Shown here piece after piece: positions 13,495-59,159 of a stretch of 64,000 nt of DNA. The notes beneath the pieces were generated by a model. The model saw nothing but the letters and a program-made list of their open reading frames with translations. It was not told the origin of the DNA and made no database searches. Each line of letters starts with the position of its first letter. The stretch's first letter is position 1. The stretch comes from Nanobdellota archaeon (lineage in GTDB: Archaea > Nanobdellota > Nanobdellia > Parvarchaeales > Parvarchaeaceae): NCBI GenBank assembly GCA_021807085.1, contig JAKAPM010000002.1:9125-73124 (forward strand). Direction: 5' to 3'. Position numbers and translations under genes: made by a program.

Positions 13495-13944
13495 TCAGGA
13501 TTTTATCTGCACTATACTCTCGCAGAATCCTCCGGATTTGTAGGTCTGCCCGCCTATCTCCACGGAGCTGCCTGTCGTGTTACCTATGAAGATGTTGTTA
13601 CCCGGCTGCAGCTGGAAATCCTGCGAGAATATGCTTGAACCTACAAAGTATGCACCGGCGAAAACCGGACCGGTCAGCGGAGGAATCTCGGCGTAAACGC
13701 TGTAATTCAGACCGGGACTGCCTTCCGACACTGTGACCCTGAAATAATCCGTCTTGGTAGGGGTGCTGACGTTGACCGCCGATATGTTGCACTGGGCGGG
13801 ACTACCGGTGAGCGACGGATTAGTTTGGCCTATGGCTAGCAACGAGAAGTGGAACACGGAGCTCGCTACCAGTATGCCTATCACTACGAAGGATATAAGG
13901 AGGACCATTATGATGATATAATCTATCGTAGATGTTCCTGTCAT
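13495..13944 (-). CDS. pilin-like extracellular protein (149 aa), last gene of five-gene operon
   Basis: N-terminus MTG|TSTIDYIIIMVLLISFVVIGILVA (G followed by a hydrophobic helix). Mature part is Ser/Thr/Gly-rich. Confidence 0.6.
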   Translation of the reverse strand: MTGTSTIDYIIIMVLLISFVVIGILVASSVFHFSLLAIGQTNPSLTGSPAQCNISAVNVSTPTKTDYFRVTVSEGSPGLNYSVYAEIPPLTGPVFAGAYFVGSSIFSQDFQLQPGNNIFIGNTTGSSVEIGGQTYKSGGFCESIVQIKS

Positions 13945-13945
13945 A

Positions 13946-15439
13946 TCAGGCCGCCACCGCGCACAAGTACATCTGATTCATGCCGAGGTAAGCAGCGCTG
14001 TCCACGTGCAGGTTCTGCTGGAACCAGCCGACTATCGAGCCTGCACACTGCTCCAGACCGCTTGTCTTGAAAAGAGTGGTACCCACAAGATTCGGGATGT
14101 TGGACAGCACATAATTGTTGCAGAAGGTATTGGTCTTGCATCCTGCACTGCTGGCACCTATGACTATCCCGCTCGCAGCAGCTCCGGCTATGGATCCGAA
14201 GCTCAACGAGGCGCTCGGAAGGCCGCGCGTGAGCAGCGCATAGGTCGTTACTGCCCTGGAACACTCGTACTCTATCCCGGAAGTCGGGTAATTTACGACG
14301 AAACTGGTCTGTACGCATTCGGACGGAAGCGTGACTTTGTCGGGAGGGAACCTCGTCCCGACGAGGCTGTTCAGGTAGACGATGTAGAGCTGTGCCTTCG
14401 ATATGGACTTGTTGCTGTCTATCGGCACCGCGTTGGCACTCCCTGATGTCTTGTTCTTGTAGCTGTAGTTGACGGTGAAGCCGGGCCTGAGGTAGTTGAA
14501 ATAGGATACGTTCACCACGGAAGTCGGCTTAACAGGTTCTGTTATCTGGCAGGTGTTCGGGACCTCGTAGGAATTCAGCACCGAATCGTAGCCGATGGAG
14601 CACACGTAATCCCCGCTCTGGTTCTTTGCGCAGAAGTCTGTGTACGGCGTAGAGCATCCTGTCGTGGCGCCGTCCTGATTGGTGCACGTACCGACGGAAG
14701 TGTTAAAGGAACAGCCCTCCGACGCGGAACACAAGTACTGCGGTAGGTCGTTGTACGCGGTGTTGGGGGCGGTGGAACTGTAAAGGGGCACAACCGTCAG
14801 CGAGTAACCCTGTGTGAAGGAGGTGTAGCCTGGCTGGTCGAAGCAGCTGAAGAAATCGCTGTTGTTGGATATGCATTCACTGGGATTGTTAAAGTTGCAT
14901 GAGAAGCCGTTCGGATTGGATGATGAGAAAGGGTCAGCGCACGCTTGTGCGGCGGTGTGGTTGAGGCAGCTCACTTCTGTCGTGAAGGGTGTGTTCTGTA
15001 GATATGTGGTCAAGTTGCCAAAGGTTATGTTTTGGTTCAGATCCAGGCTTATAATGCTGCATATCCTCGTGGCGCCGGGGGACACCGTAAGTCCCTGCGA
15101 ACCGCCGTACTGGTCCCAGCATTCGGACAGCGCGGTAGCCACTCCGGAGAAGACACTGGGAGTGGACGCCCCGCTGGAGAAAGTCTGGGACGAAGTGGTG
15201 CAGCCGAAATCGGGGGGATTTATGCCATAGGACTGCAAGGTCGAGCTCAGGCAGAAGAAATTCGAGAAACACAAGTCGTTATAGAAGAAATTCGACACCT
15301 GCGAACTCGCGTAGCACGTGGTAGCGTTGGAGAACCCAACGCCCAGGAATAGGAAGGATGCGAATATGACTATTATGAATATCATGAATATCACTGACAG
15401 GATGATGAAAATGAAGTTCTCTCCCGGCGTCTCAGGCAT
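13946..15439 (-). CDS. Cys-rich extracellular protein with pilin-like N-terminal helix (497 aa)
   Basis: MPETPG|ENFIFIILSVIFMIFIIVIFA, then about 470 aa rich in Cys (more than 25), Asn, Ser and Thr with many N-x-S/T sequons. Confidence 0.6.
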   Translation of the reverse strand: MPETPGENFIFIILSVIFMIFIIVIFASFLFLGVGFSNATTCYASSQVSNFFYNDLCFSNFFCLSSTLQSYGINPPDFGCTTSSQTFSSGASTPSVFSGVATALSECWDQYGGSQGLTVSPGATRICSIISLDLNQNITFGNLTTYLQNTPFTTEVSCLNHTAAQACADPFSSSNPNGFSCNFNNPSECISNNSDFFSCFDQPGYTSFTQGYSLTVVPLYSSTAPNTAYNDLPQYLCSASEGCSFNTSVGTCTNQDGATTGCSTPYTDFCAKNQSGDYVCSIGYDSVLNSYEVPNTCQITEPVKPTSVVNVSYFNYLRPGFTVNYSYKNKTSGSANAVPIDSNKSISKAQLYIVYLNSLVGTRFPPDKVTLPSECVQTSFVVNYPTSGIEYECSRAVTTYALLTRGLPSASLSFGSIAGAAASGIVIGASSAGCKTNTFCNNYVLSNIPNLVGTTLFKTSGLEQCAGSIVGWFQQNLHVDSAAYLGMNQMYLCAVAA

Positions 15440-15472
15440 AAACTAATAGAGTCACTGTCCACTATATATCGT

Positions 15473-16366
15473 TTATTTCGAAGTTATGCACACGAACACT
15501 CTGCTCTGTTTGTACACCATGGCGTTCGTGAGATAACCGCACTGCGGGATGTAGTAGGTGCACCCCGTGCTCAGGTTTCTCACCACCTTCGAGGGGTCGC
15601 CGTTGCTTAGGGAGCTGACCGTGCTCCGGGTCTCTGGAACGGTCTGGTTGCCGTAATAGCACTCGGCCGGGTCCAGCACCGGCTGCTGGTAGTTAGACGT
15701 CAGTATGCACTGGTCCTGGAAGGGTATTGTGCAGTCCTGCGGCGGATTGGTGGAGGGATAGCCGAAATACGAAACGAGATAACTGGAATTGGAGATTAAA
15801 TCCGACGGATTTACGTACTGTGCGCTGCCCCCGGTGCCATTGGTTATGAAAACTATCTGCAGCGGGTAGGAATTGTTGTAAGCGTTGTCTAGGGAACGTA
15901 TAAGCTGGCCATAGTCTACGCTGGTGCCGCTGCTGGGTGAGAGGATGCCGTAATAGCATTCGAACACTTGGTTCATGTTGGAGCTGCTTATCACGCTGTT
16001 TCCAGTGCCGCTGGTTGCACCGTGGAACAGGGAGAAGCACGACGACGCGTCCGCGAACAGCCTGCTGCTAACGTCGGACGTGGAGGAGAAGGCTATGTTC
16101 GAGCTCTGGAGGCACGATATCTGGACCTGGGCTGCCTGTTCGGGAGAGACGTAGTACTGCGATAAGCCGAAATAAGACGCTACGTACGTCAGGGGTGATA
16201 CGATAGAGTTTATCAGGTTGTACTGTTCGAACGCCACGAAACAGCTGAACCCGAAATTTATAGTGCTGATATCAGTTATTATCTGGAAGGAGAAAATCGC
16301 CACGATTATTCCGGCGATAACCACCAGGAAAACGGCTATTATCGTCAGTATTATCCCCTCCTCCAT
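15473..16366 (-). CDS. extracellular protein with pilin-like N-terminal helix (297 aa)
   Basis: MEEG|IILTIIAVFLVVIAGIIVAIFSF, then a Cys/Ser/Asn-rich domain. Confidence 0.6.
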   Translation of the reverse strand: MEEGIILTIIAVFLVVIAGIIVAIFSFQIITDISTINFGFSCFVAFEQYNLINSIVSPLTYVASYFGLSQYYVSPEQAAQVQISCLQSSNIAFSSTSDVSSRLFADASSCFSLFHGATSGTGNSVISSSNMNQVFECYYGILSPSSGTSVDYGQLIRSLDNAYNNSYPLQIVFITNGTGGSAQYVNPSDLISNSSYLVSYFGYPSTNPPQDCTIPFQDQCILTSNYQQPVLDPAECYYGNQTVPETRSTVSSLSNGDPSKVVRNLSTGCTYYIPQCGYLTNAMVYKQSRVFVCITSK

Positions 16367-16548
16367 CAGGCGCCTCCGCCGCCAAGAATGTTACCGAAGT
16401 ATGAGAACGGGGATTGCCCGTGCGAACTCACGTAGAACATGAGTGCCAGGACTGTTATGGCGATTACGAACGTTATCACCACTATTATGAGCCACGTTAT
16501 CCTCCACTCGACGCTGCCTTTGTTATTAATCATACCATCACTGGCCAA
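16366..16548 (-). CDS. small pilin-like protein (60 aa; ...NNKG|SVEWRITWLIIVVITFVIAITVLALMF)
   Basis: K-G followed by a hydrophobic helix and a GGGGA tail. Translationally coupled to its neighbours by overlapping stop/start codons. Confidence 0.5.
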   Translation of the reverse strand: MASDGMINNKGSVEWRITWLIIVVITFVIAITVLALMFYVSSHGQSPFSYFGNILGGGGA

Positions 16549-17044
16549 CGCACGGCGGACAGTACGGACTGTCGCCCTTCACGCACGCTGGTGTGCTCAT
16601 GTCGCAGTTCTCTATGACCGTGGCATTGTTGGCCACCACCGTGCTCTGGTCGCAGCTGAACAGGTCCGCTGTGTTGGATGGCGAGACCACCTTGCACGCG
16701 TTTAGGACCGACTGCGGCGGGGCTGATATGCAGTTCTGTACGCTGACGTAGTCCCCCTGGCCGTTCTTGTAATAGAGATAGTAGCATTCGTTGCTCAGGC
16801 ACGTCTGGTAGGCGGATGACTGGTTGTAGCAGGCGTCGGTCCCGTAGCACCTGAAGAGGGGCGTCCCTTCCATCCTGTTAGGATAACCGTATTCAGCGCT
16901 GGTGAACTGGTTCTCCAGTATGTCGTTGTTATTGCACCCCACCGGGAAGACCGACGAGAAATTCTGGTAGAAGGACACGAAGAGCACGATAGACACCGCT
17001 ATGCCGAATCCCACCTCGAACAGCATGAATTGTTCGTCGTCCAT
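16538..17044 (-). CDS. Cys-rich extracellular protein with N-terminal hydrophobic helix (168 aa), first gene of operon
   Basis: MDDEQFMLFEVGFGIAVSIVLFVSF, then a domain with about 14 Cys. Promoter-like ttgatttttattatgaaaaa lies about 20-30 nt upstream on the minus strand (plus coordinates about 17060-17078). Confidence 0.6.
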   Translation of the reverse strand: MDDEQFMLFEVGFGIAVSIVLFVSFYQNFSSVFPVGCNNNDILENQFTSAEYGYPNRMEGTPLFRCYGTDACYNQSSAYQTCLSNECYYLYYKNGQGDYVSVQNCISAPPQSVLNACKVVSPSNTADLFSCDQSTVVANNATVIENCDMSTPACVKGDSPYCPPCVGQ

Positions 17045-17577: not shown

Positions 17578-18009
17578 TCATACCGACACAGAACCCTTGG
17601 CCGCTATCGTGGGCGGTGAGGATATGTTCATCGGGGTGTAATATATGTAGACCAGCCCGGAAAAATGTGATGTGGCGGTATAGGTTATGTTGCATTCGTA
17701 GTAGGCAAGAGTCTGCAAGTACCCGCCCCCGCACCCGGTATAGTTCTGGGAGCCGATTATCAGCGACACTGCGTCGATTTTTACGTTCTCGTTGAGTAGG
17801 TTTTGGACCTTCATGTAGAATATGCTGGACGGGGCGTAGTAACCTATTGCGATCACGTCGAAACCCTGCAGTCCGGAATAGGTTGCGGAAGTCGAGGCCT
17901 GTGAGAAGGTGGGGAAGAACGTAAGTACGAGCGAGACTGCGAGGATTATCGCCACCACCGCCAGCCCGTAGATAATGGCTATCTCCAGCGACATCTGCGC
18001 GCGCATCAT
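17578..18009 (-). CDS. type IV pilin-like protein with class III signal peptide (143 aa)
   Basis: MMRA|QMSLEIAIIYGLAVVAIILAVSLVLTFF: [KR][GA] then Q with a hydrophobic helix. Ser/Thr/Tyr-rich mature domain. The overlapping ORF 17567..18013 in another frame is rejected. Confidence 0.7.
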   Translation of the reverse strand: MMRAQMSLEIAIIYGLAVVAIILAVSLVLTFFPTFSQASTSATYSGLQGFDVIAIGYYAPSSIFYMKVQNLLNENVKIDAVSLIIGSQNYTGCGGGYLQTLAYYECNITYTATSHFSGLVYIYYTPMNISSPPTIAAKGSVSV

Positions 18010-18123: not shown

Positions 18124-18294
18124 AACCCTACGTTCTTCCGTGTTCTTTTCTTGTATTCGCCATCGCTTATTATATGTTTTCTAGCTTCGAAACTCTTGCC
18201 GCAGAAGAAGCATTTGACCTGTCCGAGCGAAGATGTGCGCCTGAAGTTGCCGCAGTTCGGACACCTGACCATCCTCACCGGCATAGTATCATTC
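18124..18294 (-). CDS. small zinc-ribbon protein (56 aa)
   Basis: MPVRMVRCPNCGNFRRTSSLGQVKCFFCGKSFEARKHIISDGEYKKRTRKNVGFR; C-x2-C...C-x2-C. Not in the ORF track (under 60 aa). Function unknown. Confidence 0.45.
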
Positions 18295-19011
18295 CCCGAC
18301 CAGAGATCCGGCCAGCTCGAAAAATGCCCTGGAAGAGGCTAGTTTCCTGTCCCAAAGAACCACCGGCAGACCCTGTTTCAGGGCGGAGTATAGGGACTTG
18401 TCTTCGGGGACTATCCACGTGTTGCTTATTCCAGTTATTTCGGATGCTTCCCTCTCGCCTACTCTGTCCCTGATTCTCCTGTCGTACCTGTTCATCACCA
18501 GCCCCAGGACGTTCACGCCGCTGCTCCTGAGTTCGTCGTTCAGCTTCCTCGCTTCTATCATCGCGGTTATCTCCGGGACTGAAACTATTATGGCGCTGAT
18601 GCCGCGTATCGCCTTGACGAAGTCGACGTCGTACGACGGCTTTGAGTCTATTATTATGAAATCGTAGTTTCTCTCCACTTTCTGTATCTGGTAGAACAGG
18701 TTTATTATCTTGTACCTCGCGTTGCCGTCGCCCCTCCCCTTGAACACCCTGGACGGGAGGATGTGCAGGTTGTTCACGTCTGTCTTGTATATGGCGTATT
18801 CGACCGGCACGGAGCTGTTGAACACGTCCTCCAGAGAATATTTATACCCGACGAAGCCGAAATATATCGCCACGTGCGGCGTCTCTAGATTCGCGTCTAT
18901 TATCAGAGTCTTCTTTCCCAGCGATGCCAGCGTCGCGGCGATGTTGACCGACGTGGTCGTCTTGCCGACCCCTCCCTTCGGGCTCATGACAGCTATAACT
19001 TTGGCTACCAT
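18289..19011 (-). CDS. ParA/MinD-family P-loop ATPase
   Basis: 240 aa. Deviant Walker A SPKGGVGKTTTSVN, and Walker B IIIDSKP. Confidence 0.8.
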   Translation of the reverse strand: MVAKVIAVMSPKGGVGKTTTSVNIAATLASLGKKTLIIDANLETPHVAIYFGFVGYKYSLEDVFNSSVPVEYAIYKTDVNNLHILPSRVFKGRGDGNARYKIINLFYQIQKVERNYDFIIIDSKPSYDVDFVKAIRGISAIIVSVPEITAMIEARKLNDELRSSGVNVLGLVMNRYDRRIRDRVGEREASEITGISNTWIVPEDKSLYSALKQGLPVVLWDRKLASSRAFFELAGSLVGE

Positions 19012-23632: not shown

Positions 23633-23634
23633 GC

Positions 23635-25412: not shown

Positions 25413-26075
25413 ATGAGGGCGCAGTTTTCCTTCGAATTCGTCGTAGATGTAGCCCTTGCACTGGTCATCATAGGGTTCATAGTGGCCTTCTTTTCCTCCA
25501 TAACCACTAACAATACAGCCGCAGGGGATATGAACGGGATATGCAGTCTAATAGCCGATTCTGTGAACTCGGTCGTGAATTCCGGCGGCCTGTCCGCAAC
25601 GGTTTACCTTCCGCTGCAGAATATGACCGCAGCGGCTAATTACACGATAAACGTCTCAAACGGGGTCATAATAGTATACGCTTACTTCAACAAGAAGATA
25701 CCCGCGAAGTTCCTGTCCGGGACAAACGTCGTATCCTGCGGAGCCAACACCCGCGCCACGGCCAACGAATCGTTCGAACCTGCCAACCTGGTGCTGTACG
25801 CCAACTACAGCGACGTGGCTATAGGGTACGTGTACGCCAACTACAGCGCCAACTATTACCCATACTTCGTCTACGTCGGCGGATTCTACGGGAAGGCTAC
25901 TCTATACCTCCAGTATTCGAACGGCACCCTGCTGAAGCTTATGGACGCCACTTCCCCCTATATATACAACGCCAACGTAGGCCTTCCGATACTGACTACG
26001 GGCGAGTACACGCTGCTTGTGGAGGCGGACAACAACACAGCTCTGAGTGCCAGTCAGAGTTTCACGCTCGCTTAA
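25413..26075 (+). CDS. type IV pilin-like protein with class III signal peptide (220 aa)
   Basis: MRA|QFSFEFVVDVALALVIIGFIVAFF. Mature domain is Asn/Tyr/Ala-rich. Confidence 0.7.
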   Translation: MRAQFSFEFVVDVALALVIIGFIVAFFSSITTNNTAAGDMNGICSLIADSVNSVVNSGGLSATVYLPLQNMTAAANYTINVSNGVIIVYAYFNKKIPAKFLSGTNVVSCGANTRATANESFEPANLVLYANYSDVAIGYVYANYSANYYPYFVYVGGFYGKATLYLQYSNGTLLKLMDATSPYIYNANVGLPILTTGEYTLLVEADNNTALSASQSFTLA

Positions 26076-26126: not shown

Positions 26127-26603
26127 ATGGTAAAAAGAGCACAGTCGGCTTTGGAGTACATGATGACGTATGGTTGGGCCATACTAATCATAGTAATCGT
26201 AGCTGCTGTCCTGTACTCGATGGGCATATTCAACCCTTCGAGCAGCGTAACCACGTCGTCGAGCGGCTTCAGCCCGTTCACCGTCAGCGCGGCGCTTTGC
26301 AACAGCTCAGGTACATGGGTATCTTTCGTTGTAGGCGGTTATCCTAACGGTGCACAGAGCGCGACCAGCGTGACCCTGACCCTCACCGCGACAAGCGGCG
26401 CGAGCGGCAGCGGCACTGCAACTGCAATCGGATCGCCGACATACACGTCTGGCACAAGCTTCAAAATGACAGCTGCTGGCGTAACATGCGCGACAGCCGG
26501 AGGAAAGTTCTCCGAGAGTGGTTCGATAGGTTACTCGGTAACCACGACACTAGGTGCGCAGTCTTACACAACGACGGGTACGGTAGCAGGATCAGCTAGT
26601 TAA
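26127..26603 (+). CDS. type IV pilin (class III signal peptide), Ser/Thr/Gly-rich, candidate major pilin (158 aa)
   Basis: MVKRA|QSALEYMMTYGWAILIIVIVAAVLYSMGIF. TATA-like aagtatacttaaatag about 27 nt upstream (leaderless). Followed by an oligo-T terminator at 26610..26640. Confidence 0.8.
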   Translation: MVKRAQSALEYMMTYGWAILIIVIVAAVLYSMGIFNPSSSVTTSSSGFSPFTVSAALCNSSGTWVSFVVGGYPNGAQSATSVTLTLTATSGASGSGTATAIGSPTYTSGTSFKMTAAGVTCATAGGKFSESGSIGYSVTTTLGAQSYTTTGTVAGSAS

Positions 26604-29833: not shown

Positions 29834-30086
29834 ACCCTAATAAGATTAAATTCTGTATAAATAGATTAACGAAAGAGAGATATTGTATATCATTCATGCG
29901 GCTTTCTTCAGTATTTTCGACACATAATCTATGTCAGTAAAAACTAAAACCTACCGATTTATTTATTGCAAGTTGCCCACATCATCCAGGCTGTAGAATA
30001 TCTTTCCATTGGGCTTTATTCTCTTGAACTCTTCCAGTTCTTTGCCCCGACCGGGTGCCGACATTTCTGTCATATTAGAATGATAT

Positions 30087-31070: not shown

Positions 31071-31076
31071 ACCACA

Positions 31077-31436
31077 TCAATTTCTTTTGAACAGTCTACG
31101 TATAGAATCTACATTGTCTTCTATAAAAATATCAGAGCCATTTTTTATACCACCAAAGTTTTTCTTCAATATATTATTACCTTCAAAGGTAATGACTTTT
31201 TCTTTATTCTTTTTATTAATTATATACCCTTCTTTATCTGTTTCATAGCCAAAGGTGTCCAAAACAAAGTCAATAGCCGAACTATCAAATGTTATGTCTA
31301 GGTTTTCATCAACATTCTTATAAGTGTTAAGTTCTGTTTGCATATTATTATTATTACTATTATGTATAAATATTCGATTAATGACACCTTCTGCCTTATA
31401 AAGCTTACTAACTATCGAGTTAGAGAGGATCTTCAT
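31077..31436 (-). CDS. hypothetical protein of integrated element (119 aa)
   Basis: AT-rich ORF. Stop overlaps the integrase start region. Confidence 0.45.
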   Translation of the reverse strand: MKILSNSIVSKLYKAEGVINRIFIHNSNNNNMQTELNTYKNVDENLDITFDSSAIDFVLDTFGYETDKEGYIINKKNKEKVITFEGNNILKKNFGGIKNGSDIFIEDNVDSIRRLFKRN

Positions 31437-32389: not shown

Positions 32390-32499
32390 AATTTAAGCTT
32401 TCTCCGGCTGCTCTCGTATCTCTTCCACGGTCACCCTGACGACCTTGCCGGCTAGAGAGTTTGAAAGGATTAAAATTAAACGAGGGATTATAATAATTA

Positions 32500-33011: not shown

Positions 33012-34202
33012 ATGCCCAACGTAACCTTCTACTTTGAGGTGCACCAGCCGTACAGGCTGAGGAGAGTGTTCTCCTTCGACAAGAACCAGAATTTCATCGA
33101 CACGGACAGGAACAGGGCAGTATTCGGCAAGGTGGCCGACAAATGCTACATACCGATGACGAAGATGCTTGTGGACCTAAACAAGGAATACCCAGAGCTG
33201 AAGACGAGCTTCTCGTTCACGGGCATATTCTTCGAGCAGGCAGAGGAATTCAGGCCGGATGTTATCAACGTTTTCCAGGAGCTGTTCGACACGGGCTCTA
33301 TGGAGATACTGGACGAAACCTACTACCATTCGCTCGCCTACCTGATAGACAGGGACGAATTCGAGGACCAGGTGAAGCTGCACAGAGAGGCGATACACCG
33401 ATACTTCAAGTTCAAACCGACGGTCTTCAGGAACACGGAGGCCATGTATTCCAACGACATAGCCTCCCTGGCCGCTAAGATGGGTTACAAGGCGATAGTC
33501 GCGGAGGGATGGGAGAAGAGCCTCGGATGGAGGTCGCCTAACTACGTTTATACGGATCCCGGCAGGAAAATAAATTTACTCCTGAGAAACTACAAGCTGA
33601 GCGACGACATATCGTTCAGGTTCTCGTCCCATGGATGGAAAGAGTACCCTCTGACGTCGGAAAAGTACGCGGGTTGGCTCGCCGACAACGAAGGGGACAC
33701 AGTCAACCTATTCATGGACTACGAGACCTTCGGCGAGCACCAATGGAAGGATACCGGGATATTTGACTTCTTTAGGGCTCTTCCGGGAGACATGATAAAA
33801 AAGGGTATTGGGTTCAACAAGGTGTCCGACACGGCAGCCGTAAAGCCTGTCGGTATAGTGGATGTACCGGACATAATGTCGTGGGCAGACGTGGACAGGG
33901 ACCTCACGGCATGGCTCGGCAACAGGATGCAGAATGCTGCGTTCGAGAAGCTGAAAGGCATGAGGAAGGACGTGCTGCAGACGGAAGACAAGGACATAAT
34001 AAGCGAGTGGAGGGTTCTGCAGACTTCTGACAACTTCTATTACATGTGCACGAAGTGGTTCGCGGACGGGGATGTGCACAAGTATTTCAACGCGTACGAT
34101 TCTCCGTACGTGGCGTACATAAACTACATGAACATAATATCCGACCTGGACAGAAGGGTCAAATCCGCTTTAGAGCTGCGTCGTAAGCCTGCAGATATAT
34201 AG
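33012..34202 (+). CDS. glycoside hydrolase family 57 protein (alpha-amylase/4-alpha-glucanotransferase/branching-enzyme family)
   Basis: 396 aa. N-terminal FYFEVHQPYR motif typical of GH57, and the overall length. Confidence 0.7.
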   Translation: MPNVTFYFEVHQPYRLRRVFSFDKNQNFIDTDRNRAVFGKVADKCYIPMTKMLVDLNKEYPELKTSFSFTGIFFEQAEEFRPDVINVFQELFDTGSMEILDETYYHSLAYLIDRDEFEDQVKLHREAIHRYFKFKPTVFRNTEAMYSNDIASLAAKMGYKAIVAEGWEKSLGWRSPNYVYTDPGRKINLLLRNYKLSDDISFRFSSHGWKEYPLTSEKYAGWLADNEGDTVNLFMDYETFGEHQWKDTGIFDFFRALPGDMIKKGIGFNKVSDTAAVKPVGIVDVPDIMSWADVDRDLTAWLGNRMQNAAFEKLKGMRKDVLQTEDKDIISEWRVLQTSDNFYYMCTKWFADGDVHKYFNAYDSPYVAYINYMNIISDLDRRVKSALELRRKPADI

Positions 34203-35936
34203 GCAGGAACTTTTCCCATCCGAACTGCTCAGACAGCTCCCTAGCGGACACCCTCATCTTCAGCAGCTCGTCCTGGTTGGTCGTCACTATCTTCAGCATG
34301 TCGCGGGATATCTGGCCGACGACGTCGTCCCTCTTCCTGTTTATCAGGCGTTCCACGAATATCCCTCCGGACTGCTCCTTGATCTCGTTGATGCAGTATT
34401 CACCGAACCCTCCTTGGTCGGTGGTGAAGGCTATGGACATGTAGGACGCCGCCTCGAGGGGGGTGTAGCCGAACGGCTCGTACTTGGACAGGAAGAACCC
34501 AGCAACAGCTATCGAGAGGGCCTCGTGGTAGGTTAGGTTTAGAAGCTCGTCTCCGAGAGTCAGGTACTTGGGGTAGTATATGACCTTCACGTGGCAGTTG
34601 GGGGAGTTGTCCAGGCCGTTCTCCCTCAGCCTGCTGAGTATCTGGTCGTCATTTTCTGAATAGGATAGTATGAACGGGCACAGGGGCGGATTGACCAGCT
34701 TGGAACGCCTAAGCTGCGACGTCATCCTCTTGGTGTCGTTCACTATCTTGCTGTATGCCTTGTCCATGACTGCCGACGCTGTGGTCGGATTGGACGAGAC
34801 CAGCTTGTCGAAGCTCTCTATGTCTTCGTGCAGGGTGGCTTTTATGCCGAGGTAAGTTAGGTAATTCGCCACCACGTCGCTCTTGGTCCCTACGGTACCG
34901 GACGGGACGGCGATGAAGGCTACCACGTAATTGTCGTCGGACAGCGTCTTGTTGAGCCTGCCGAGAGCGTCTATGAAAAGATCGAAACCCTTCCCGTAGA
35001 ACTCGTACCTTCCCCCTGTCAGGAAGACTGTGGCCTTCTTCGCATCGAAGTCGTAGTAGGGAAGGAAATACCCGTTAACGAAGTTTTCGAACTTCGCTTG
35101 GGCGCTGTTCCTAAGTGCATCTAGGTCCACCGGCGCGGGCAGGTCCTTCAGGTCTATCCCGTTTATGGTCACGAAATCGGTCTTTCTTCCGAGCATTACC
35201 TCCGCTTCCTTAGCGACTATCTTGCTCACGGTCGTGAACACCGTCGCGTTCAGGGCCGCAGCCTTCTCCGTGAGGTGCTTTGCGGCAACGCCGTATTGGT
35301 AGGGGAGGGAAGGGCCTACGCTAGTGTTAGAGTTTACGAACGCCAGAGTATCCCCCCCGTTGTAGGATATCGCCCTTCCGAGGACGGTCGCGTGTACCGT
35401 GAAGACAGTGGGGACCCTTACGTTGCTGGATTTAAGGTAGAGAAGTGCGCCGGCGGAAAGCCATTCGTGCACCTGGGCCACCATCGGCATGTGCACTGCC
35501 TTGCTGAGGGAAGCCAGGAACACGCCAGCCGTGTACGACCACGCGAGCGGCTCGGTGTAGTCCTCCGGAGCATTGAGCGAATCTATCTTGAATTTGTCCC
35601 AGAACTCCTTCTTTATCTCGTTACCGTGCCTCTGTTCGAATTCTTTGGAGTCTATCAGGAGAAGATTTACATCGCTTCCGGACGCCCATCTGCCGAAGTA
35701 TATCTTTACGCCGTCGAGCTTGATGTCGGCTATGGCGTCCTTGACGAACTGCGGCGCCGGCGCCTCTACGAATTCTATCGCGCACTGCGTGGGGTTGTAG
35801 AAGCCTACGGCTAGGTAGTTAGGGCCGAACTTCTGCTTGATGTATTCCGATTTCGAGGTTAGGACGGTCCATATTCCCCCGACTTTGTTGCCCGCCTCGA
35901 ACGATACCTCCGCCAAAAAATAGGGACTGGACATAC
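34159..35936 (-). CDS. glycogen(starch) synthase, eukaryote-like GT3-type
   Basis: Probable start MSSPYFLAEVSFEAGNKVGGIWTVL (cf. eukaryotic glycogen synthase EVANKVGGIYTVL); 592 aa. The ORF track extends 30 codons further upstream. The 3' end overlaps the convergent GH57 gene by about 44 nt. Confidence 0.7.
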
Positions 35937-36099
35937 AATAATAGTGGGTCGTTTTCAATATATTAGTTGCTGTCGAAACTTGGGTCCCGCACGGGAGCCG
36001 GAAGGGCGGACTACACACCACATATGGATTTGGCTTTAATTAATGTGCAAAGCCCATGAGAAAAATAACTATTTATAGAGATACTCTTCAGTAGTTGAC

Positions 36100-41299: not shown

Positions 41300-41979
41300 T
41301 CAGTTGAAAAAACAGGCGGAGTAGAACACCTGGTAGGTGCGGGGAAACACCCTTATAATGTAAAGCGGCAGGTCGGTGCTAACAGGTACAGAACCTGAGT
41401 ATTGGCCGTTCGAAGAGGTCTCCGTCTGGCTCGCGATGTAGGCCCCAGACTCGGAATAGACGGTTATGTTGAACGTCACATCAGGGAGGAGGTCGCCGTT
41501 CTCGTCGAAAAACTCCAGCGAATAGTCTATGCTACCGGAAGAATAGGAGAAACTCGAATCCATGGAAGATAGGGGAAAATTCAGGCCCATCTCAGTTATC
41601 GTGCCGTTGAACGTGAGATAGGCGTGGTACAGGCCGGGTATGAACGGCATCAGCCCAGACATGTTGACGTTCGCCTGGTCTATGTACGACGACGCTCTGC
41701 TGCCTAATTCGACGATGTCGCCGCAGAAAAAGGAGGACTGCACTGAGAGCAGCGGGAAGGTGACGGCTATCACCGTCTTGGAGTCGGCCCCCTGGGCCGA
41801 CACGTAGTTCGCCGCTTGCACTATCTGGGCGGCTGCGGTGGATATCTGGTTGGAGGAGGACGAACTTGAGTAAGAAGTGTAGAAAAAGAGCGCGTACACC
41901 AGCGCGGCGGCTATCACTGCCATGGCTATCCCGAGGATTATCACGTATTCGGTCGTGTATTGGGCTCTGCGGCGGTCCA
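41300..41979 (-). CDS. pilin-like protein with class III signal peptide (226 aa)
   Basis: Probable start MDRRRA|QYTTEYVIILGIAMAVIAAALVYALFF (ATG at 41979; the tracker ORF starts 56 codons earlier). Ser-rich mature domain. Confidence 0.65.
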
Positions 41980-42033
41980 TAAATGATAGACGACCTTCAC
42001 GTATATATAAAATACGGGGAGAGATAGATATTA

Positions 42034-44969: not shown

Positions 44970-45836
44970 CTACGGGCTGGAAGAGTTGCCAGGCAACGGA
45001 CTGCCGCTGGAATTTGTTGCCGCGTAATTCGGCGTAAGGTAAAACACCAGGTCCAGCGGGCCGTAATATGGCGAGTTTGGGGTCCCGATGACCAGCGTCA
45101 GCAGGACTGTGGAGCTCCCACCAACTGTCATGGGAGGGTTGGGAGTCTCGTTCAGAATAGAGAAACCGGTAGTGTTCACCGAGATATTCGTGAGTGTGAC
45201 CGACGACGGCGCGTTCTGTATGCCTTTCGGGATGGACATGTCGAATGACAGGGTTTCGCGGCTGCCTGGAGTGACGTTGAAAGAACTCGACGAGGGGGAT
45301 ATTGTGAAATAAACGTACTGGTTGTCGGAAAAATCGGTCATCATATTCAGGTAGTTTACGTAGACGTCATTGTTATTTTGGTGGGGCTGCGCCGATCCTC
45401 CCGCTGGTCTGGCCCCGTGCGTACTTGAAACGGAAAAATTGAAGTTGAGATAACCCAGGCGCCATGCCGAGAGAAAAGCCATAGTCGCAAGCACAACCAC
45501 CAGCGCGAGGATTATCTCCCTTCGTGGCGCTCTTACGGACGGCAGGCGGACTTCCGGTTTCCTGATGCGTATGTATATTTTCTGTCTCGGAATCCTGGCG
45601 GACATGGGCTTTATCGACAAAGATCTCCTTACCAGTCTTTCTTCCACCCCTTTTATTTTCCCTAGCTTTACATTCTCCCCTCTTACAGGCAATCTTCTCC
45701 TGATTCTCTTGCTGAAGCCTTCAAACAGTTCGGACTTCCTGCCGACAGGACTGAGGGTCCTTGCGACGTCTCTCTTGAACCTGTAAAGCTCCAGCCAGTC
45801 CTTGAGTTTGGTTATAGGGTTCATTCTCATATTCAA
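44970..45836 (-). CDS. membrane-anchored surface protein (288 aa) with Arg/Lys-rich cytoplasmic N-tail, co-transcribed with giant YVTN protein
   Basis: About 120 aa basic N-terminus, a single TM EIILALVVVLATMAFLSAW, then a Ser/Thr/Asn/Pro-rich ectodomain. Start overlaps the upstream stop (ATGA). Confidence 0.55.
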   Translation of the reverse strand: MNMRMNPITKLKDWLELYRFKRDVARTLSPVGRKSELFEGFSKRIRRRLPVRGENVKLGKIKGVEERLVRRSLSIKPMSARIPRQKIYIRIRKPEVRLPSVRAPRREIILALVVVLATMAFLSAWRLGYLNFNFSVSSTHGARPAGGSAQPHQNNNDVYVNYLNMMTDFSDNQYVYFTISPSSSSFNVTPGSRETLSFDMSIPKGIQNAPSSVTLTNISVNTTGFSILNETPNPPMTVGGSSTVLLTLVIGTPNSPYYGPLDLVFYLTPNYAATNSSGSPLPGNSSSP

Positions 45837-48800
45837 CCAGAAGAGTGCCCCGCCCCTATGACCACTGCCCTCCAGTTATTTGCCTGCGGTATCGTTATTG
45901 GCGTCAGAAACGCGTTGGAGGGGTCGGATATCGCAGCCGACGTGTTGAGGACCGATATTTGATTGGTGTTCCAGTTCGCGATATACGCGAATTTGCCGTC
46001 TGTGGTGAGGGCTATTCCCTGTGGGTTGTTGAGCCCTCCCCCTCCTACAGCGTCTATCTCCGACAGCGATGTAAGGTTCACAACGTCTACCTGGTTAGCG
46101 CACGAGTTCACGACGTACGCTATCGTACTGTTCGCATTTGAAGTCAGCCAGTTAAGGCAGCCGCCTAGTGGCAGTGTTTTGACTATGGAATTGGTCTGCG
46201 TGTCTATAAACAGCAGAGAACTGGACGGCAAGCACTGCGTGTCGACAAGCGCGTATTTTCCGTTCTGTGTCACCTTAACGAATTGGGGACAGCCCGGCGC
46301 GGTTATCGTATCTATCAACGCGTTGCTTGCTGTCGAGATGACGGAGACTGTGGAATTTGTGAGGAGCCCGCCGTTCTTGTTATAGTTCCCGCTGATTATG
46401 CTGGACGCCACGTAGAGGAGGGACTTATCGGGTGTTATAGCTATGGCGTGTGGTAATGTATTGTTGAGGTATATATCGGTCAGGGGCATAAAAGAGGGTG
46501 AACCGTCGTTGGATACGGACAGGTTTTGAACAGCTACCGACGGGAGCGACCAGGAATTTTGCACGGAGTACATAAGGTTCCCGTCCTGCACGAGGCCAAG
46601 GTCGCCACTACAAGGGACATTGCACGACGGCGGAATCGGTATGTGGTTGGAACCCGTCCACATATACGTCATGGAGGAACCGCTGCCGCTTATGTACAAT
46701 TTTGACAGATCAGGAGAAGTCGCCAGGCCCCATATCGCTATTCCCGGACCGTAAACGTATCTAATCAGCCTCAATTGCGGCGTAAAGATTGCAACACCGT
46801 TGTTGCCTATTGTAGTAAGCCAGCTGTTTCCGCATGTAAAGGTCTCGTACACCGTTCCGTTCGGGGAAACGGTTATCGGACCGGGGCAGCCGCCAGATAC
46901 GTACGAATATTGCAATACGCCCGCGGAGACATTCACCGCCTCTATTATAGCACCCGTGCTCAGATAAGCCAGCCTGTTGTCGTTGCTGAACGCCAAGAAA
47001 GCGTTTCCGCCCCAGCCAGTATTGACGGTGTACATTACCTTGTGTGATGTCAAATTTATCATAGACATTGCGGCGCCTTCGTTGTTGCAGTCACCGCTCA
47101 TCTCTGCAGCGTACTCGCCGTTTGGTGATATCGCAATCCTTCCTGAGCAGATGGTGAGGAGATTGCCCACCCTGGTCTCGACCTGCAGGTTCACGGGGTT
47201 GTATACGACGAGCGGGCTCTCTTCATGCCAGTGAAAAAGCGCGAAAAGACGGCTACCTCCGCTTGAAAACATGAGGGAGGACAAGTCGGTGCCCTGGTAA
47301 TACTGCTCGAGGGCTATTGTGTTGTTGGCCGTGTAAATCTTTGTAACGTCCGCATTGTTCTGGCACCACGCCCCTGTGTAAACATAATTACCATCGTGGG
47401 AGACTGTCACAGCCCTGATACACCCGCCGTGAGTCACGCTCCCTATCACAGTCGAATAGGTGTTAGTGACGGCATTTATGACGGAAACTTCATTGCTGCT
47501 GTAGCAGGCTATGTAAGCGTACTGCCCGTTTGGGGTGAACGCGATTCCTTCGGGATTGTTGCAGTTGATACTCCCTATGTCCATCACCAGGGAATTTGTC
47601 GCTGCGTCTATCACCGAGACTGTGTTGGAGCCGTAATTTGATGCGTAAACCTCTGAAGAGTTGGTGGGGGAGACAGCGAGGACATACGGGTTTGACTGCA
47701 CGCTTATAGTTGTCGTAGGGGTTCCCGACGGGTAAGAGAACACCGAAACGGTGTTCCCGTTCCAGTTTGTCACAAATATCTCGTTGTCCGTCACGGCCAC
47801 GTCCTGCGGGGAATTTAGCCCGTTCCCGCTTATCGTCTGCACTACCTGCAGGGTGGTGTTGTCTATCACCGAGACTGTGTTGGAATTCGAATTGACAACA
47901 TATATATAGCCGTCCGGCGCCACAGTAATGCCGAGAGGATTGTGGCCGACAAGTATGTTCTTCACAACTACGTAGGACGAGGAGTTCATGACTGACACGC
48001 TGCCCTGTGTGTTTCCCCAGTCAAATGAATTCGATATGTAGAGGAATTTTCCTGTGTTGCTCATAGCCATGAACTGCGGGTCGTAGCCTATGCCGCTCAC
48101 GTTACCGACGATAGAATTTGTAGAAGTGCTAATCACCGAGATATTGTTGTAATTGTCGTAGCCGGATGGGACGTATACGTCGTTCGTCTTGCTGTCGTAC
48201 GCTATATCGAAAGCGTTAGGGGCGCCTATGCTGGTTATGTTGCCCACGTTCGTCATGGTTGCTGGATTTACCACAGAGACCGCGTTCGAACCGGAGTCGG
48301 CTACGTATATGTCCCCGTTGCTCGCCGTGACCATCTCCTGCGGGCTCCCCAGAGTGCCTATATGTTTGAAATCTGAGAAAGTGCTAGGATTCGACAGGTT
48401 GACCACGTCCACCGCGTTCTGTCCGCAGCCTTCGAGAGAGACAAAGGCGTATTTCGAGTTTGGCGGTACGTCGATATAGAAGTCGCCGCATCCAGCCGTC
48501 CAGTACTTCTTTATCAGGCTGAAATTCTGCGTGCTAAACACCCCCAAGGTCGACCAGCCGTCAGGTTCGTAAGCTATGCTGCCGTTCGCTGAAAAAGCTA
48601 TCTGTGATACGCCCCACGTCGGATTGCCGATTGTAGTTATCAGTTTGTTGTCGGTAGTGTTTATCTCCGCGAGCGTGCCTGTCCAGCTGCTTACGTACGC
48701 GATGTCGTTTGTCGCCTGAAAAGGCCCTCCGCTGATGAACGGCGCTATCTTGGCGCCGATGCTACCGGATGACATGTAATTGGTGCTGAAAACGTTGCTC

Positions 48801-49198
48801 GAGGTGTACAAGACGTCGACTTTCACGGACGAAAAAGAGTTAGTGGACCCAAAGTTTCCAGAGATGTAACACAGTGTAGACCCGCCTTCGTCCAGCTTGC
48901 TGCTATCGCATGTATAGGTAGTGTATGTGTTGCCGCCGGCTGTAGCGTTAAGGCTGTCTATGGTTATTGCACTGCCAGCTATATTTTGAAGTTGCAGGCC
49001 CATCTGGCTGCTGCTCATCGAGGCTGTAGAAACCGTTATGCCGGAGAATCCGCTTATCACCAGGCTGACCGGGGGGCTTATGTTGAATATACCCATCTCG
49101 TACATTATGGCTGCGGCTATAACTATTATGAGGATGGCCCAGCCATATGTCATCATGTATTCTAAGGCCGATTGGGACTTCTGGCCGCAAGGTGCCAT
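45833..49198 (-). CDS. giant surface protein (1121 aa): class III (pilin-type) N-terminus fused to multiple YVTN-type beta-propeller repeats
   Basis: N-terminus MAPCGQKS|QSALEYMMTYGWAILIIVIAAAIMYEMGIF is nearly identical to the pilin at 26127. At least 15 repeats of the form G...P.GIA..PDG...YV.N..SNTVSVID. Confidence 0.8.
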   Translation of the reverse strand: MAPCGQKSQSALEYMMTYGWAILIIVIAAAIMYEMGIFNISPPVSLVISGFSGITVSTASMSSSQMGLQLQNIAGSAITIDSLNATAGGNTYTTYTCDSSKLDEGGSTLCYISGNFGSTNSFSSVKVDVLYTSSNVFSTNYMSSGSIGAKIAPFISGGPFQATNDIAYVSSWTGTLAEINTTDNKLITTIGNPTWGVSQIAFSANGSIAYEPDGWSTLGVFSTQNFSLIKKYWTAGCGDFYIDVPPNSKYAFVSLEGCGQNAVDVVNLSNPSTFSDFKHIGTLGSPQEMVTASNGDIYVADSGSNAVSVVNPATMTNVGNITSIGAPNAFDIAYDSKTNDVYVPSGYDNYNNISVISTSTNSIVGNVSGIGYDPQFMAMSNTGKFLYISNSFDWGNTQGSVSVMNSSSYVVVKNILVGHNPLGITVAPDGYIYVVNSNSNTVSVIDNTTLQVVQTISGNGLNSPQDVAVTDNEIFVTNWNGNTVSVFSYPSGTPTTTISVQSNPYVLAVSPTNSSEVYASNYGSNTVSVIDAATNSLVMDIGSINCNNPEGIAFTPNGQYAYIACYSSNEVSVINAVTNTYSTVIGSVTHGGCIRAVTVSHDGNYVYTGAWCQNNADVTKIYTANNTIALEQYYQGTDLSSLMFSSGGSRLFALFHWHEESPLVVYNPVNLQVETRVGNLLTICSGRIAISPNGEYAAEMSGDCNNEGAAMSMINLTSHKVMYTVNTGWGGNAFLAFSNDNRLAYLSTGAIIEAVNVSAGVLQYSYVSGGCPGPITVSPNGTVYETFTCGNSWLTTIGNNGVAIFTPQLRLIRYVYGPGIAIWGLATSPDLSKLYISGSGSSMTYMWTGSNHIPIPPSCNVPCSGDLGLVQDGNLMYSVQNSWSLPSVAVQNLSVSNDGSPSFMPLTDIYLNNTLPHAIAITPDKSLLYVASSIISGNYNKNGGLLTNSTVSVISTASNALIDTITAPGCPQFVKVTQNGKYALVDTQCLPSSSLLFIDTQTNSIVKTLPLGGCLNWLTSNANSTIAYVVNSCANQVDVVNLTSLSEIDAVGGGGLNNPQGIALTTDGKFAYIANWNTNQISVLNTSAAISDPSNAFLTPITIPQANNWRAVVIGAGHSSG

Positions 49199-49393
49199 GC
49201 ATATTAAAGTAAGGGGGAATTAAAAAGCTTGTCGAGTCTCACTCTGCATGTTTTAAACGAGCTAGTGGAACTACGCCAAAAAGCGATGAAAGGCGGCCCT
49301 CCCAAGTGACTCGGGGCGCGCTCGGTCAAAACGATCCGCTACAGAACCAACAGTAGGGCTTGATTTCAGCATAGCCGTAAGAACCGCGGCTTT

Positions 49394-57278: not shown

Positions 57279-59159
57279 ATGGCACCGGTCCTGCACGTTC
57301 TGTCCAAGGACGGCACATTCCTTTTCCGCTTCAACAACGGGGAATTCGGGTCCAAATGGTGCGGGGTATGGGACGGGCCGACTAAATATTTCGACTATTT
57401 CGCTTTCTCGCTGGACGGTGAACCGCTCTCGGAAAGAAACGCGGAAGGCTTCGAATACTACAATTCCCAGTTCTCCAAGATAATCTACAGTACCGGTAGG
57501 GGAAAAGTCGAAGAGGAGGTGGTGTGCACCGACAAAAAGGTCATAATAACCTTGAAACCGAAATTCGCCTGCAGCGTCGCTGCAGAGGTTGGCGTGAATC
57601 TGAGAGACAGGAGCGAGAACTACGTGAAAGGGAAGGTATACGGCACGTCCGCCGTTGAAGACTACAAGATAAGCGCGGAGAACGGGGGCAGGACCGGCTT
57701 CGTGCTCTATGACAGGGGAAGGTTTGAGAAGAAGGAATACTACGGCATACATTCCCCGGGAAGGTACGCCATCGAGAAAGGGTTGACCAAATATATGGAC
57801 GACGGCAGCGTGCAGAACAAATACGTGCCTGGAATAATCTCTGCCGACCTGAAGGAGAGGGAAGAGTTCACAATCATACTCTCGTCGGAGGACATGGACA
57901 GGGACCAGCTGTACAAGGCCGTCAAAAACAGGCTCTACCACAGCAAACAGCACGGGGACCTGATAAACGCCACCGTTTCGGCGTACGGGGGCATGAACTT
58001 CATCGACTCCGACTTCTACAAAGACGTAATAGACGGGATATATTCGTACGCGGACATGATGGGCAAGAAGATATACGCGGGTTTTCCGTATTTCAACCAG
58101 TTCTGGCTGAGGGACGCTTTGATGATCGCTCCGTCGTTCCTATCGATAAACAACACGAAGTTTGTCAGGGACTTGTTGATTGGGATAGCGGCAATGGCGA
58201 CAGACAACGGGCTCCCAAACGTTGCTGATGGCGGCAACTATCCTATGGACGTACCGGCACTGTTCATAATCAACCTGATAAGATATTACAAGTGGACAGG
58301 GGATTCCGCGACGCTAGAAGAGCTGCTGCCTGCCGCTAGAAAGTTAGCAGAGGCGGCGTCGAGGAGAATCGAAGACGGGCTGGTCCACGACAGGGGCAGG
58401 GAGACATGGATGGATTCAGCCGACAGGAGATACTCCTTGGAGATACAGGTGCTGTGGGGAAGGGCGTTCTCCGATATTTCAGAGGTCGCAAAAGACGACG
58501 GCGCTTTCTACAGGCTCTCGAACGGGATACGCGGGGGCCTCAAGAGGTATTATAGGACCGGCCATTTCGCAGACCAGCTGGACGTCGATGTCGACAGCAT
58601 AAACCAGATCTTCCTCCTGCTGTTCGGAGACGCGGACGCACAGACTGGGAAGGAGATACTCAATAACATCGACTCGGAAATGATGACAGACTACGGACCG
58701 ACATCGGTCTCCCAAAAGGACCCGGCATTCTCTCCGAAAGGCTACCACAACGGCGCGATCTGGCCGTTCACGACGTCGGTGTTGGCTGCATGCTCATACA
58801 GGTACGGCAGGATAGATTTAGGACAGAAATGCTTCGACATCCTGCAGAGAAGAAATTTCGGTTCGCAGTGCACCGCCAGGATAAACGAGATATTCCAGCC
58901 GGACGGAGAACCGAAAGGCTGCCCTTCGCAGGCCTGGTCAATCGGGCTGCTGCCGTATCTGATAGACGAATGCGTGCTGGGCATACACGTCGACGTGCCT
59001 AAAGGAAGGATACTTGTGGACGAGCCGCCTATGGACGTTGACATCGACAGGAAGATATACGTGAAGAACAGGGAAGTAGAACTCCGCTTCAGGCAGGGGT
59101 CGCTGTGGTCGAACGCGAAGATGGAAAGAGTAGGCGGTTCTTTTATAGTGAGCCTATAG
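57279..59159 (+). CDS. glycogen debranching enzyme (amylo-alpha-1,6-glucosidase, GDE C-terminal (alpha/alpha)6 barrel; GH133-like)
   Basis: 626 aa. FWLRDALM and GYHNGAIWPF signature segments of the GDE_C family. Confidence 0.7.
   Translation: MAPVLHVLSKDGTFLFRFNNGEFGSKWCGVWDGPTKYFDYFAFSLDGEPLSERNAEGFEYYNSQFSKIIYSTGRGKVEEEVVCTDKKVIITLKPKFACSVAAEVGVNLRDRSENYVKGKVYGTSAVEDYKISAENGGRTGFVLYDRGRFEKKEYYGIHSPGRYAIEKGLTKYMDDGSVQNKYVPGIISADLKEREEFTIILSSEDMDRDQLYKAVKNRLYHSKQHGDLINATVSAYGGMNFIDSDFYKDVIDGIYSYADMMGKKIYAGFPYFNQFWLRDALMIAPSFLSINNTKFVRDLLIGIAAMATDNGLPNVADGGNYPMDVPALFIINLIRYYKWTGDSATLEELLPAARKLAEAASRRIEDGLVHDRGRETWMDSADRRYSLEIQVLWGRAFSDISEVAKDDGAFYRLSNGIRGGLKRYYRTGHFADQLDVDVDSINQIFLLLFGDADAQTGKEILNNIDSEMMTDYGPTSVSQKDPAFSPKGYHNGAIWPFTTSVLAACSYRYGRIDLGQKCFDILQRRNFGSQCTARINEIFQPDGEPKGCPSQAWSIGLLPYLIDECVLGIHVDVPKGRILVDEPPMDVDIDRKIYVKNREVELRFRQGSLWSNAKMERVGGSFIVSL

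Follow-up and report, generated by a model that had tools for sequence, protein, structure and literature searches.

A pilin-like surface protein with three predicted YVTN propellers and a linked membrane partner in an acidophilic DPANN archaeon

This work concerns a 64,000-nucleotide stretch of contig JAKAPM010000002.1 (positions 9,125 to 73,124), called the window below in its full length. It comes from an uncultured acidophilic DPANN archaeon of acid-mine origin, related to metagenome-assembled genomes (MAGs) labelled Parvarchaeota or Nanoarchaeota, and it carries a gene for a triple-propeller surface protein on the minus strand (45833..49198), followed by a conserved partner gene on the same strand (44970..45824). 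The open reading frame (ORF) of the surface protein, already called in an earlier reading made from the letters alone (the sequence-only reading), proved real: it runs from an ATG start to a TGA stop and encodes 1121 amino acids (aa). Public assemblies hold the identical protein, without a name. The protein starts with MAPCGQKSQSALEYMMTYGWAILIIV (in a longer stretch, MAPCGQKSQSALEYMMTYGWAILIIVIAAAIMYEMGIF), and a Kyte-Doolittle hydropathy scan of its whole length found a single hydrophobic segment, at aa ~11-40. The same scan gave neither a transmembrane segment nor a sorting signal at the C-terminus, where the tail (aa 1093-1121 plus the TGA stop, 45833..45922, minus strand; hydropathy) has a strand at residues 1109-1115 in the AlphaFold2 (AF2) model. 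This model, computed for the whole protein from an alignment of eight orthologous sequences, reached a mean predicted local distance difference test score (pLDDT) of 72 and a predicted template modelling score (pTM) of 0.56. It consists of a helix (residues 11-34), a beta-sandwich (47-148) and then an unbroken four-strand periodicity up to residue 1115, so that the repeat blocks for which structure prediction had been proposed are indeed all-beta.

The general properties of the protein were compared among orthologs. The predicted mature form has a mass of 117 kDa, an isoelectric point of 4.35 and only 28 lysine and arginine residues in total. Six cysteine pairs, with a spacing of ~13-21 residues, are invariant across orthologs, and two additional pairs co-vary, both members being either present or absent. 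Because these cysteines come and go together, they suggest disulfides. The acidic isoelectric point, the cysteine pairs and the scarcity of charges would fit an extracellular protein of an acidic habitat. A raised density of glycosylation sequons, proposed earlier as a point to check, was not found, with 22 N-X-S/T sequons for 22.6 expected from composition. Conservation is another matter, as 13 of the 22 sequon asparagines are invariant among orthologs, versus 19 of the 87 remaining ones; this could reflect glycosylation or merely the blade motif ...V(I/V)(N/D)x(S/T).

The N-terminus was examined as a possible class III signal. Archaeal proteins with such a signal have a short charged leader bearing K/R at -2 and G/A/S at -1, immediately before about 20 hydrophobic residues that form an N-terminal alpha-helix, and then a beta-rich globular domain. 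Motif comparison shows that the protein fits this rule. Its leader peptide MAPCGQKS (aa 1-8, 49175..49198, minus) has K at -2 and S at -1, with a predicted class III site before Q9, and the mature N-terminus QSALEYMMTYGWAILIIVIAAAIMYEMGIF (aa 9-38, 49085..49174, minus) offers Q+1, E+5 and a ~21-residue hydrophobic helix. The context, MAPCGQK-S/QSALEY (the slash marking the predicted cleavage), thus places a basic leader directly before the hydrophobic stretch. It is followed by a globular beta-sandwich domain (aa ~45-150, 48749..49066, minus), modelled by AF2 with a pLDDT of 67-89 and containing the invariant pair Cys97-Cys110. All full-length homologs (41-54% identity) keep the [KR]S/QSALEYMMTYGWAIL N-terminus, and the sequence-only reading, which had named a helix predicted as a simple signal anchor together with homologs devoid of any pilin-like start as the observation that would speak against it, is not contradicted on this point.

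The selection acting on this N-terminus was assessed in a larger family. One genome per species was scanned with the peptides EYMMTYG and WAIL[IV]IVI[VA], which gave 443 matches, 333 of them confirmed relatives; the best 75 loci were kept, and 91 paralogous ORFs from them were compared. Related loci are cited below by L-numbers, and the related DNA analysed amounts to 1.25 Mb. Position -1 is S in 80 ORFs, A in 7, G in 3 and T in 1 (S/A/G in 90/91), and position -2 is K in 52, R in 30 and H in 5 (K/R/H in 87/91). Outside the search peptides, Q1, S2, G28 and F30 occur in 91/91 ORFs, and L4 and P32 in 90/91. At these near-invariant N-terminal positions, all synonymous codons occur; the mature N-terminus is near-invariant in orthologs as well as in paralogs. 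The same is seen within the window, where the helix of the protein and that of a 158-aa pilin-like protein described below agree at 19 residues while their codons differ at 11 synonymous sites. Gene conversion as the origin of the identical helix was ruled out, synonymous sites varying freely. Because the residues are invariant while their synonymous codons vary, the sequences indicate that the cleavage context and the helix are under purifying selection, much stronger than a plain membrane anchor would require.

The first 150 residues also behave as a unit. A phmmer search with aa 1-165 against 1.84 billion representatives gave 2076 clusters at E<=1e-3, including 210 at E<=1e-10. Among the matches listed, most cover query residues ~6-150, i.e., the helix and the sandwich, nearly all begin near the N-terminus of the matched protein, and the proteins are 147-1960 aa long. 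Many of those listed are stand-alone proteins of ~150 aa, homologous to the module from end to end, and the first 150 aa therefore form a complete, self-sufficient module. The module was also modelled on its own with AF2 (aa 1-165, pLDDT 72) and the model compared with the PDB by Foldseek; four of the top seven matches are archaeal type-IV-filament proteins: FlaF/FlaG (6pbk, E 2e-4), the Pyrobaculum calidifontis type IV pilus (8fk7), the Halobacterium archaellin (9eq7, two chains) and Iho670 (5kyh). With the 59-aa N-terminus as query, a word-index search for homologs was uninformative, retrieving nothing but short fragments (<=103 aa), a PDB sequence search with the pilin-module profile gave chance-level matches only, and the curated models PF04021 (Class_IIIsignal), PF07790 (Pilin_N) and TIGR02537 failed to match the N-terminus, the shortness of these models and the HMMER filters limiting sensitivity. 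The pilin helix of the earlier reading is thus borne out in part: a complete module, a conserved predicted cleavage site and weak matches to archaeal filament folds speak for it, while a match to a curated class III hidden Markov model (HMM) was sought and not found, nor was a class III peptidase gene in the window or in the 1.25 Mb of related DNA.

Most of the remaining protein is made of YVTN blades. The TIGR02276 YVTN repeat was recognised at E 1.6e-32 (111 bits, for a cutoff of 27.85), the Pfam propeller models NHL, Lactonase, YncE and Cytochrom_D1 match as well, and a blade profile refined by iteration among the orthologs counted exactly 21 blades in this protein and 168 (8 x 21) in the eight orthologs. 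Tandem YVTN-type repeats had been predicted for all of the ~1070 aa beyond the N-terminal helix; they were found at aa 160-1092, aa ~45-150 being the separate beta-sandwich. From the blade count, the array is most simply read as three seven-bladed propellers. Blades 1-7 (aa 160-459, 47822..48721, minus), placed by the blade profile, AF2, TIGR02276 and Pfam, would form propeller 1, with the invariant pair Cys237-Cys258. Blades 8-14 (aa 463-759, 46922..47812, minus) would form propeller 2, the best-conserved region and the one of highest confidence (pLDDT mostly 84-92), where Cys546-565 and Cys684-704 are invariant. It overlaps the stretch that best matches the nearest solved relative by sequence, the Methanosarcina YVTN surface-layer protein 1L0Q (phmmer E 3e-32, aa 386-581). 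Blades 15-21 (aa 771-1092, 45923..46888, minus), presumably propeller 3, are more divergent; Cys771-789 and Cys1014-1033 are invariant there, and Cys970-989 is present in 7/8 orthologs. Foldseek with the whole-protein model returned generic multi-propeller proteins only.

The gene located immediately downstream encodes a membrane protein of 284 aa (44970..45824, minus), with alternative starts at ATG 45830 and TTG 45836. The junction reads GGT-TGA-AT-ATG-AGA-ATG, and three partner starts are possible: a TTG (TTGA overlap, giving a 288-aa ORF), an ATG 2 nt past the stop and an ATG 8 nt past the stop, the last being used by public gene calls and giving the 284-aa form. An ATGA translational coupling had been proposed for this junction, but it is absent, the stop being the TGA within GGT-TGA. 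The topology described earlier for the 288-aa product was confirmed: a basic N-terminus of 102 aa (31 K+R), one transmembrane helix (~103-128) and a 156-aa ectodomain composed of S, T and P to 37%. The suggestion that it could be a partner also gained support, in that a dedicated one-transmembrane gene follows the surface-protein gene in all orthologs. Its orthologs, recovered by position and tblastn, come after the triple-propeller gene at a distance of 4-14 nt in L003, L004 and L005, where the genes flanking the pair (NDK, aIF5B, a glycosyltransferase) are not conserved. In the partner alignment A3, the cytoplasmic part is variable and an ectodomain of ~110 aa is conserved (FNVTPG...TP..Y.G). 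The partner has no Pfam, NCBIfam or PDB match (the PDB profile search stayed at chance level), and a word-index homology search with it returned only itself.

Upstream of the surface-protein gene, a TATA-like box, TTTTTAAT (49219..49226, minus), was read in the sequence 21-28 nt before the ATG, which suggests the promoter of a leaderless or short-leader bicistronic transcript. Given this box, and since the gap between the two genes is too short to contain a promoter, both are likely to be carried by one bicistronic transcript. Most other paralogs have no comparable one-transmembrane neighbour. Two paralogs of ~380 aa, in L057 and L066, are followed by a one-transmembrane gene: the one in L057 (1444-2115) matches the A3 partner profile at E 1e-5, and the one in L066, downstream of a 393-aa gene, resembles the partner by topology only. 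Pairs made of a pilin-like protein and a bitopic partner may thus not be confined to the triple-propeller orthologs.

The protein is one of many modular pilin-like paralogs in this lineage, judging from the sequences compared, and not a one-off. The best 75 loci come nearly all from acid-mine DPANN MAGs labelled Nanoarchaeota, Ca. Parvarchaeota or Ca. Acidifodinimicrobium, one being labelled Micrarchaeota and one only 'bacterium', and at least 14-15 paralogs with this N-terminus occur per MAG. Among the ORFs listed, proteins sharing it fall into length classes of ~150-180 aa and ~330-570 aa, with a tail of 700-1454 aa. Their C-termini are diverse. Single YVTN/lactonase propellers end proteins of 516-569 aa, an NHL-rich propeller one of 819 aa, DUF2341 one of 780 aa and DUF5074 one of 458 aa, and a protein of 382 aa shows no recognisable module. 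Among 71 representatives of at least 300 aa, Laminin_G_3 was found in 14, DUF2341 in 12, propellers in about 7-10 and pentaxin in 2.

Some members of this family adjoin genes of a filament machinery. In two related MAGs (L019 and L022), 2-3 tandem QSALEY genes are directly adjacent to a T2SSE ATPase gene (PF00437, E 1e-36) and two T2SSF genes, the whole locus (QSALEY genes of 384-477 aa, T2SSF x2 and T2SSE) extending over 9941-17477 in L019 and 9932-16295 in L022. An archaeal 'system 1' with an ATPase and a split platform has been described in methanogens and DPANN (bioRxiv 10.64898/2026.04.22.720090), and the layout of both loci matches it. Within the 64 kb of the window, no T2SSE, T2SSF or A24 gene was found among the ~45 ORFs scanned. 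As regards the signal peptidase, the related DNA contains two GxGD candidates, one of which was scanned with Pfam. This candidate (L035 8033-8890, minus), located immediately upstream of a DUF2341-bearing QSALEY gene, was rejected as an A24 prepilin peptidase, Pfam identifying a GxGD aspartyl protease of the presenilin/signal peptide peptidase (SPP) type (PF06550, E 8.5e-9).

We consider, with moderate confidence, that the protein is a modular, type-IV-pilin-like surface protein with a class III signal, whose helix would be recognised by the filament machinery, whose propellers would bind a ligand and whose partner would act at the membrane. It is probably an adhesin. From a mechanistic point of view, the invariant helix would let the filament machinery handle the protein, which may then cap or prime a thin pilus made of a small pilin with the same helix. 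Alternatively, it may be held in the membrane by this helix, in a bindosome-like manner; the data are equally compatible with such membrane retention and with a position at the filament tip. In both cases, the three propellers, disulfide-stabilised and probably glycosylated, would offer a binding surface for a host cell or another ligand, and the co-transcribed partner may dock or stabilise the protein at the membrane.

Several observations weigh against this interpretation. A C-terminal load of ~105 kDa would fit a filament only at its tip, and a count of at least 14 paralogs per genome is high for proteins of a tip. The locus has no pilus genes, its neighbours being NDK, aIF5B and a glycosyltransferase, and motif scans of the window and of the 1.25 Mb of related loci, complemented by Pfam on one candidate, revealed no A24 prepilin peptidase. 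No relevant Pfam or NCBIfam match was obtained at E<=10 for the first 158 aa of the protein or for the small pilin of the window, and no class III or pilin model matched among the 71 relatives at E<=0.001. The Foldseek matches are weak (E 2e-4 to 1e-2, template modelling scores of 0.35-0.5), the top one, FlaF/FlaG, being a membrane-anchored stator and not a filament subunit, and the AF2 models were built from just eight sequences (pLDDT 72).

Part of this evidence would also suit a plain signal anchor, i.e., an uncleaved type II helix holding the propeller array at the surface without any link to a type IV filament. The failure of curated class III HMMs, the lack of a peptidase gene in the window and the 1.25 Mb, the location of the gene outside a pilus locus and a best structural match that is itself membrane-anchored all speak for such an anchor. 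It nevertheless leaves unexplained the invariance of K/R at -2, of a small residue at -1 and of Q+1, E+5, G28 and P32 across 91 paralogs whose synonymous sites are saturated, as well as the stand-alone homologs of 150 aa and the paralogs adjoining ATPase and platform genes, and we regard it as unlikely. The propellers may instead tile the cell surface as an S-layer-like envelope protein, an arrangement suggested earlier for the Methanosarcina YVTN 'surface layer protein'. Indeed, the nearest solved relative, 1L0Q, was deposited as 'Surface layer protein', and the protein is large, acidic and cysteine-stabilised, with conserved sequons. However, many paralogs carry different C-terminal modules, no sign of lattice formation was seen, and in Micrarchaeota, the neighbouring ARMAN lineage, the S-layer protein with experimental support is of the PF05123 type (bioRxiv 10.1101/2021.04.28.441871), a domain absent here: neither PF05123 nor TIGR01564-01567 appears among the Pfam and NCBIfam matches of the protein, which sets aside an S-layer protein of the Micrarchaeota type. 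An envelope role of this kind seems improbable to us.

Propellers of this type also occur in models of enzymes, and the protein matches Lactonase, Cytochrom_D1, TIGR03866, L-NosZ and hydrazine synthase beta, as a secreted or surface lactonase, a pyrroloquinoline quinone (PQQ)-associated protein or a redox propeller would. All equivalog-level scores are nonetheless far under the curated cutoffs (184 vs 287 for TIGR03866, 93 vs 700 for L-NosZ, 90 vs 560 for hydrazine synthase beta and 59 vs 400 for YncE), and these enzyme equivalogs were accordingly rejected, the matches corresponding to the generic blade repeat. The sister modules in the family, moreover, are lectins and the adhesin-associated DUF2341. 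A catalytic function is thus very improbable.

The favoured interpretation, that of a modular pilin-like protein, can be compared with known systems. In PilY1/PilC, a beta-propeller forms the adhesive end of a bacterial type IV filament, and DUF2341, which is linked to PilY1-like adhesins, is present in paralogs that share the N-terminus described here. PilY1, however, is no pilin and reaches the tip via minor pilins, whereas the present propellers are fused directly to a pilin module; no PilY1/PilC propeller model was found among the Pfam matches of the protein at E<=0.1. The Q+1/E+5 pattern is that of Methanococcus EppA substrates. With proteins of the system 1/Epd type, the protein shares a short basic leader and a small residue at -1, and its paralogs adjoin an ATPase and a split platform; DUF2341 adhesin modules occur among these paralogs, as with predicted adhesins of archaeal type IV pilus loci. 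It differs from them by an N-terminus that PF04021, PF07790 and TIGR02537 do not recognise, by the location of its gene apart from a pilus locus and by a helix that is almost identical across many paralogs per genome. Methanosarcina mazei 1L0Q belongs to the same blade family and is also an extracellular archaeal protein, but it combines one propeller with PKD domains, in contrast with three propellers, a pilin module and no PKD domain here.

Class III signal proteins with binding domains are known in archaea from the bindosome (PMC3047682) and from the Epd locus, and large archaeal class III proteins were predicted to be adhesins or minor pilins by Makarova et al. (PMC4858521). As in the Sulfolobus bindosome, the genes lie dispersed, at a distance from the assembly locus; by contrast with it, the ectodomain is a propeller array and not the binding protein of an ABC transporter, and no transporter genes are adjacent. 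The closest parallel in design lies in the modular type IV pilins PilB and PilC of Streptococcus sanguinis (PMC8179133, PMC9934059), in which a complete pilin module is likewise fused to a bulky C-terminal binding module, and the commonest modules added in the present family are also lectins of the ConA/LamG type. Unlike PilB and PilC, the protein is archaeal, with Q+1, a KS cleavage context, a beta-sandwich pilin fold and a dedicated, conserved partner gene; its added module, three YVTN propellers over ~930 aa, is far larger, and its incorporation into a filament is putative.

Each component is therefore known, and it is the combination of a pilin module, three YVTN propellers and a partner, in a very large family whose N-terminus escapes the curated models, that appears undescribed. 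The 'modular pilin' idea would thereby be widened from bacteria to archaea, without any new principle. DPANN archaea need physical contact with a host, and the molecules of this contact are largely unknown. YVTN/PKD expansions in ARMAN were proposed to serve cell-cell contact (PMC5498576), and the description of Ca. Acidifodinimicrobium names VirB11 and TadC as the sole cell-cell interaction genes (PMC7779479). Because it names only these two, though MAGs of the lineage carry the N-terminus described here, this suggests that the family had gone unrecognised. The modular pilin-like family provides concrete candidates for host-recognition adhesins, including the triple-propeller member and its partner, and the signature [KR][SAG]/QSALEYMMTYGWAIL finds it in metagenomes. 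A broader and more tentative idea, which we hold as possible but doubtful, is that, in DPANN archaea of the Parvarchaeales type, the single near-invariant pilin module is a general display handle: one type-IV-filament machine would present diverse binding modules as the main interface with the host, and in at least one MAG the members would be switched by slippage of (AGAC)n repeats. If so, the repertoire would amount to at least 14-15 genes per ~1-Mb genome, diversifying fast (propellers, lectins, DUF2341), and its largest conserved member would be the triple-propeller protein, accompanied by a membrane partner of its own.

These repeats were observed in MAG FK2.bin89, where paralogs have the common leader ATGAAGCCGGGGTCCTCCGTATATATTAC(AGAC)nAGAAAA... 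Tracts of (AGAC)6-19 lie inside the leader-coding region at L024 93-128 and 4135-4158, L036 9947-9982, L054 9935-9982, L056 9947-9982 and L072 9890-9965, and all six (AGAC)>=4 tracts of the 1.25 Mb are located 28-45 nt upstream of the Q+1 codon of QSALEY-type genes. The ATG is in frame with n=2 (L042, L066, L077) and with n=6 (L024); with n=9 (L036), the ATG frame hits a stop, and no ATG exists in the pilin frame. The pattern resembles an archaeal case of slipped-strand phase variation, switching surface proteins ON and OFF, with repeat lengths that are uncertain at an assembly coverage of ~1.7x. The triple-propeller gene in the window has no (AGAC)n repeat.

Other genes of the window also encode class-III-like N-termini. 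The stand-alone pilin-like gene mentioned above (26127..26603, plus) encodes 158 aa starting with MVKRA/QSALEYMMTYGWAILIIVIVAAVLY and shares 41% identity with the triple-propeller protein over the first ~120 aa of the latter; on sequence grounds, it is a candidate major subunit that may co-assemble with it. It adjoins a class-III-like gene of 220 aa (MR/AQFSFEF, 25413..26075, plus), the two being located downstream of SecD/SecF (22052-24555), and an AT-rich tandem repeat (26607-26641), possibly a terminator, comes after it. On the minus strand, a class-III-like gene (MMR/AQMSLEI, 17578..18009) and four further genes with N-terminal hydrophobic helices (13495..17044) make up a run of five (143, 168, 297, 497 and 149 aa), which is interrupted by a ribosomal L15e gene and a tRNA-Thr and adjoins a MinD/ParA-type ATPase gene (18289..19011, minus). 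Several of its products are cysteine-rich and none has a Pfam match; this run may be a minor-pilin or accessory cluster. A last class-III-like gene, of 226 aa (MDRRR/AQYTTEY followed by a hydrophobic helix, 41300..41980, minus), shows 31% identity to homologs in L033 and L071 and overlaps the start of a longer glycosyltransferase ORF call on the opposite strand.

The rest of the window offers minor observations. A low-GC island (30001-32400, 35% vs ~51%), with a tyrosine integrase (31433-32389), a 327-aa hypothetical protein and no adjacent tRNA, is probably an integrated mobile element. A ribonucleotide reductase gene (60606-63884, minus) is split by an intein with LAGLIDADG homing-endonuclease and winged-helix domains. 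Finally, glycogen metabolism genes (GH57, glycogen synthase and a debranching-enzyme-like GDE_C protein) are found at 33012-36021 and 57279-59159, although the genome is expected to be reduced.

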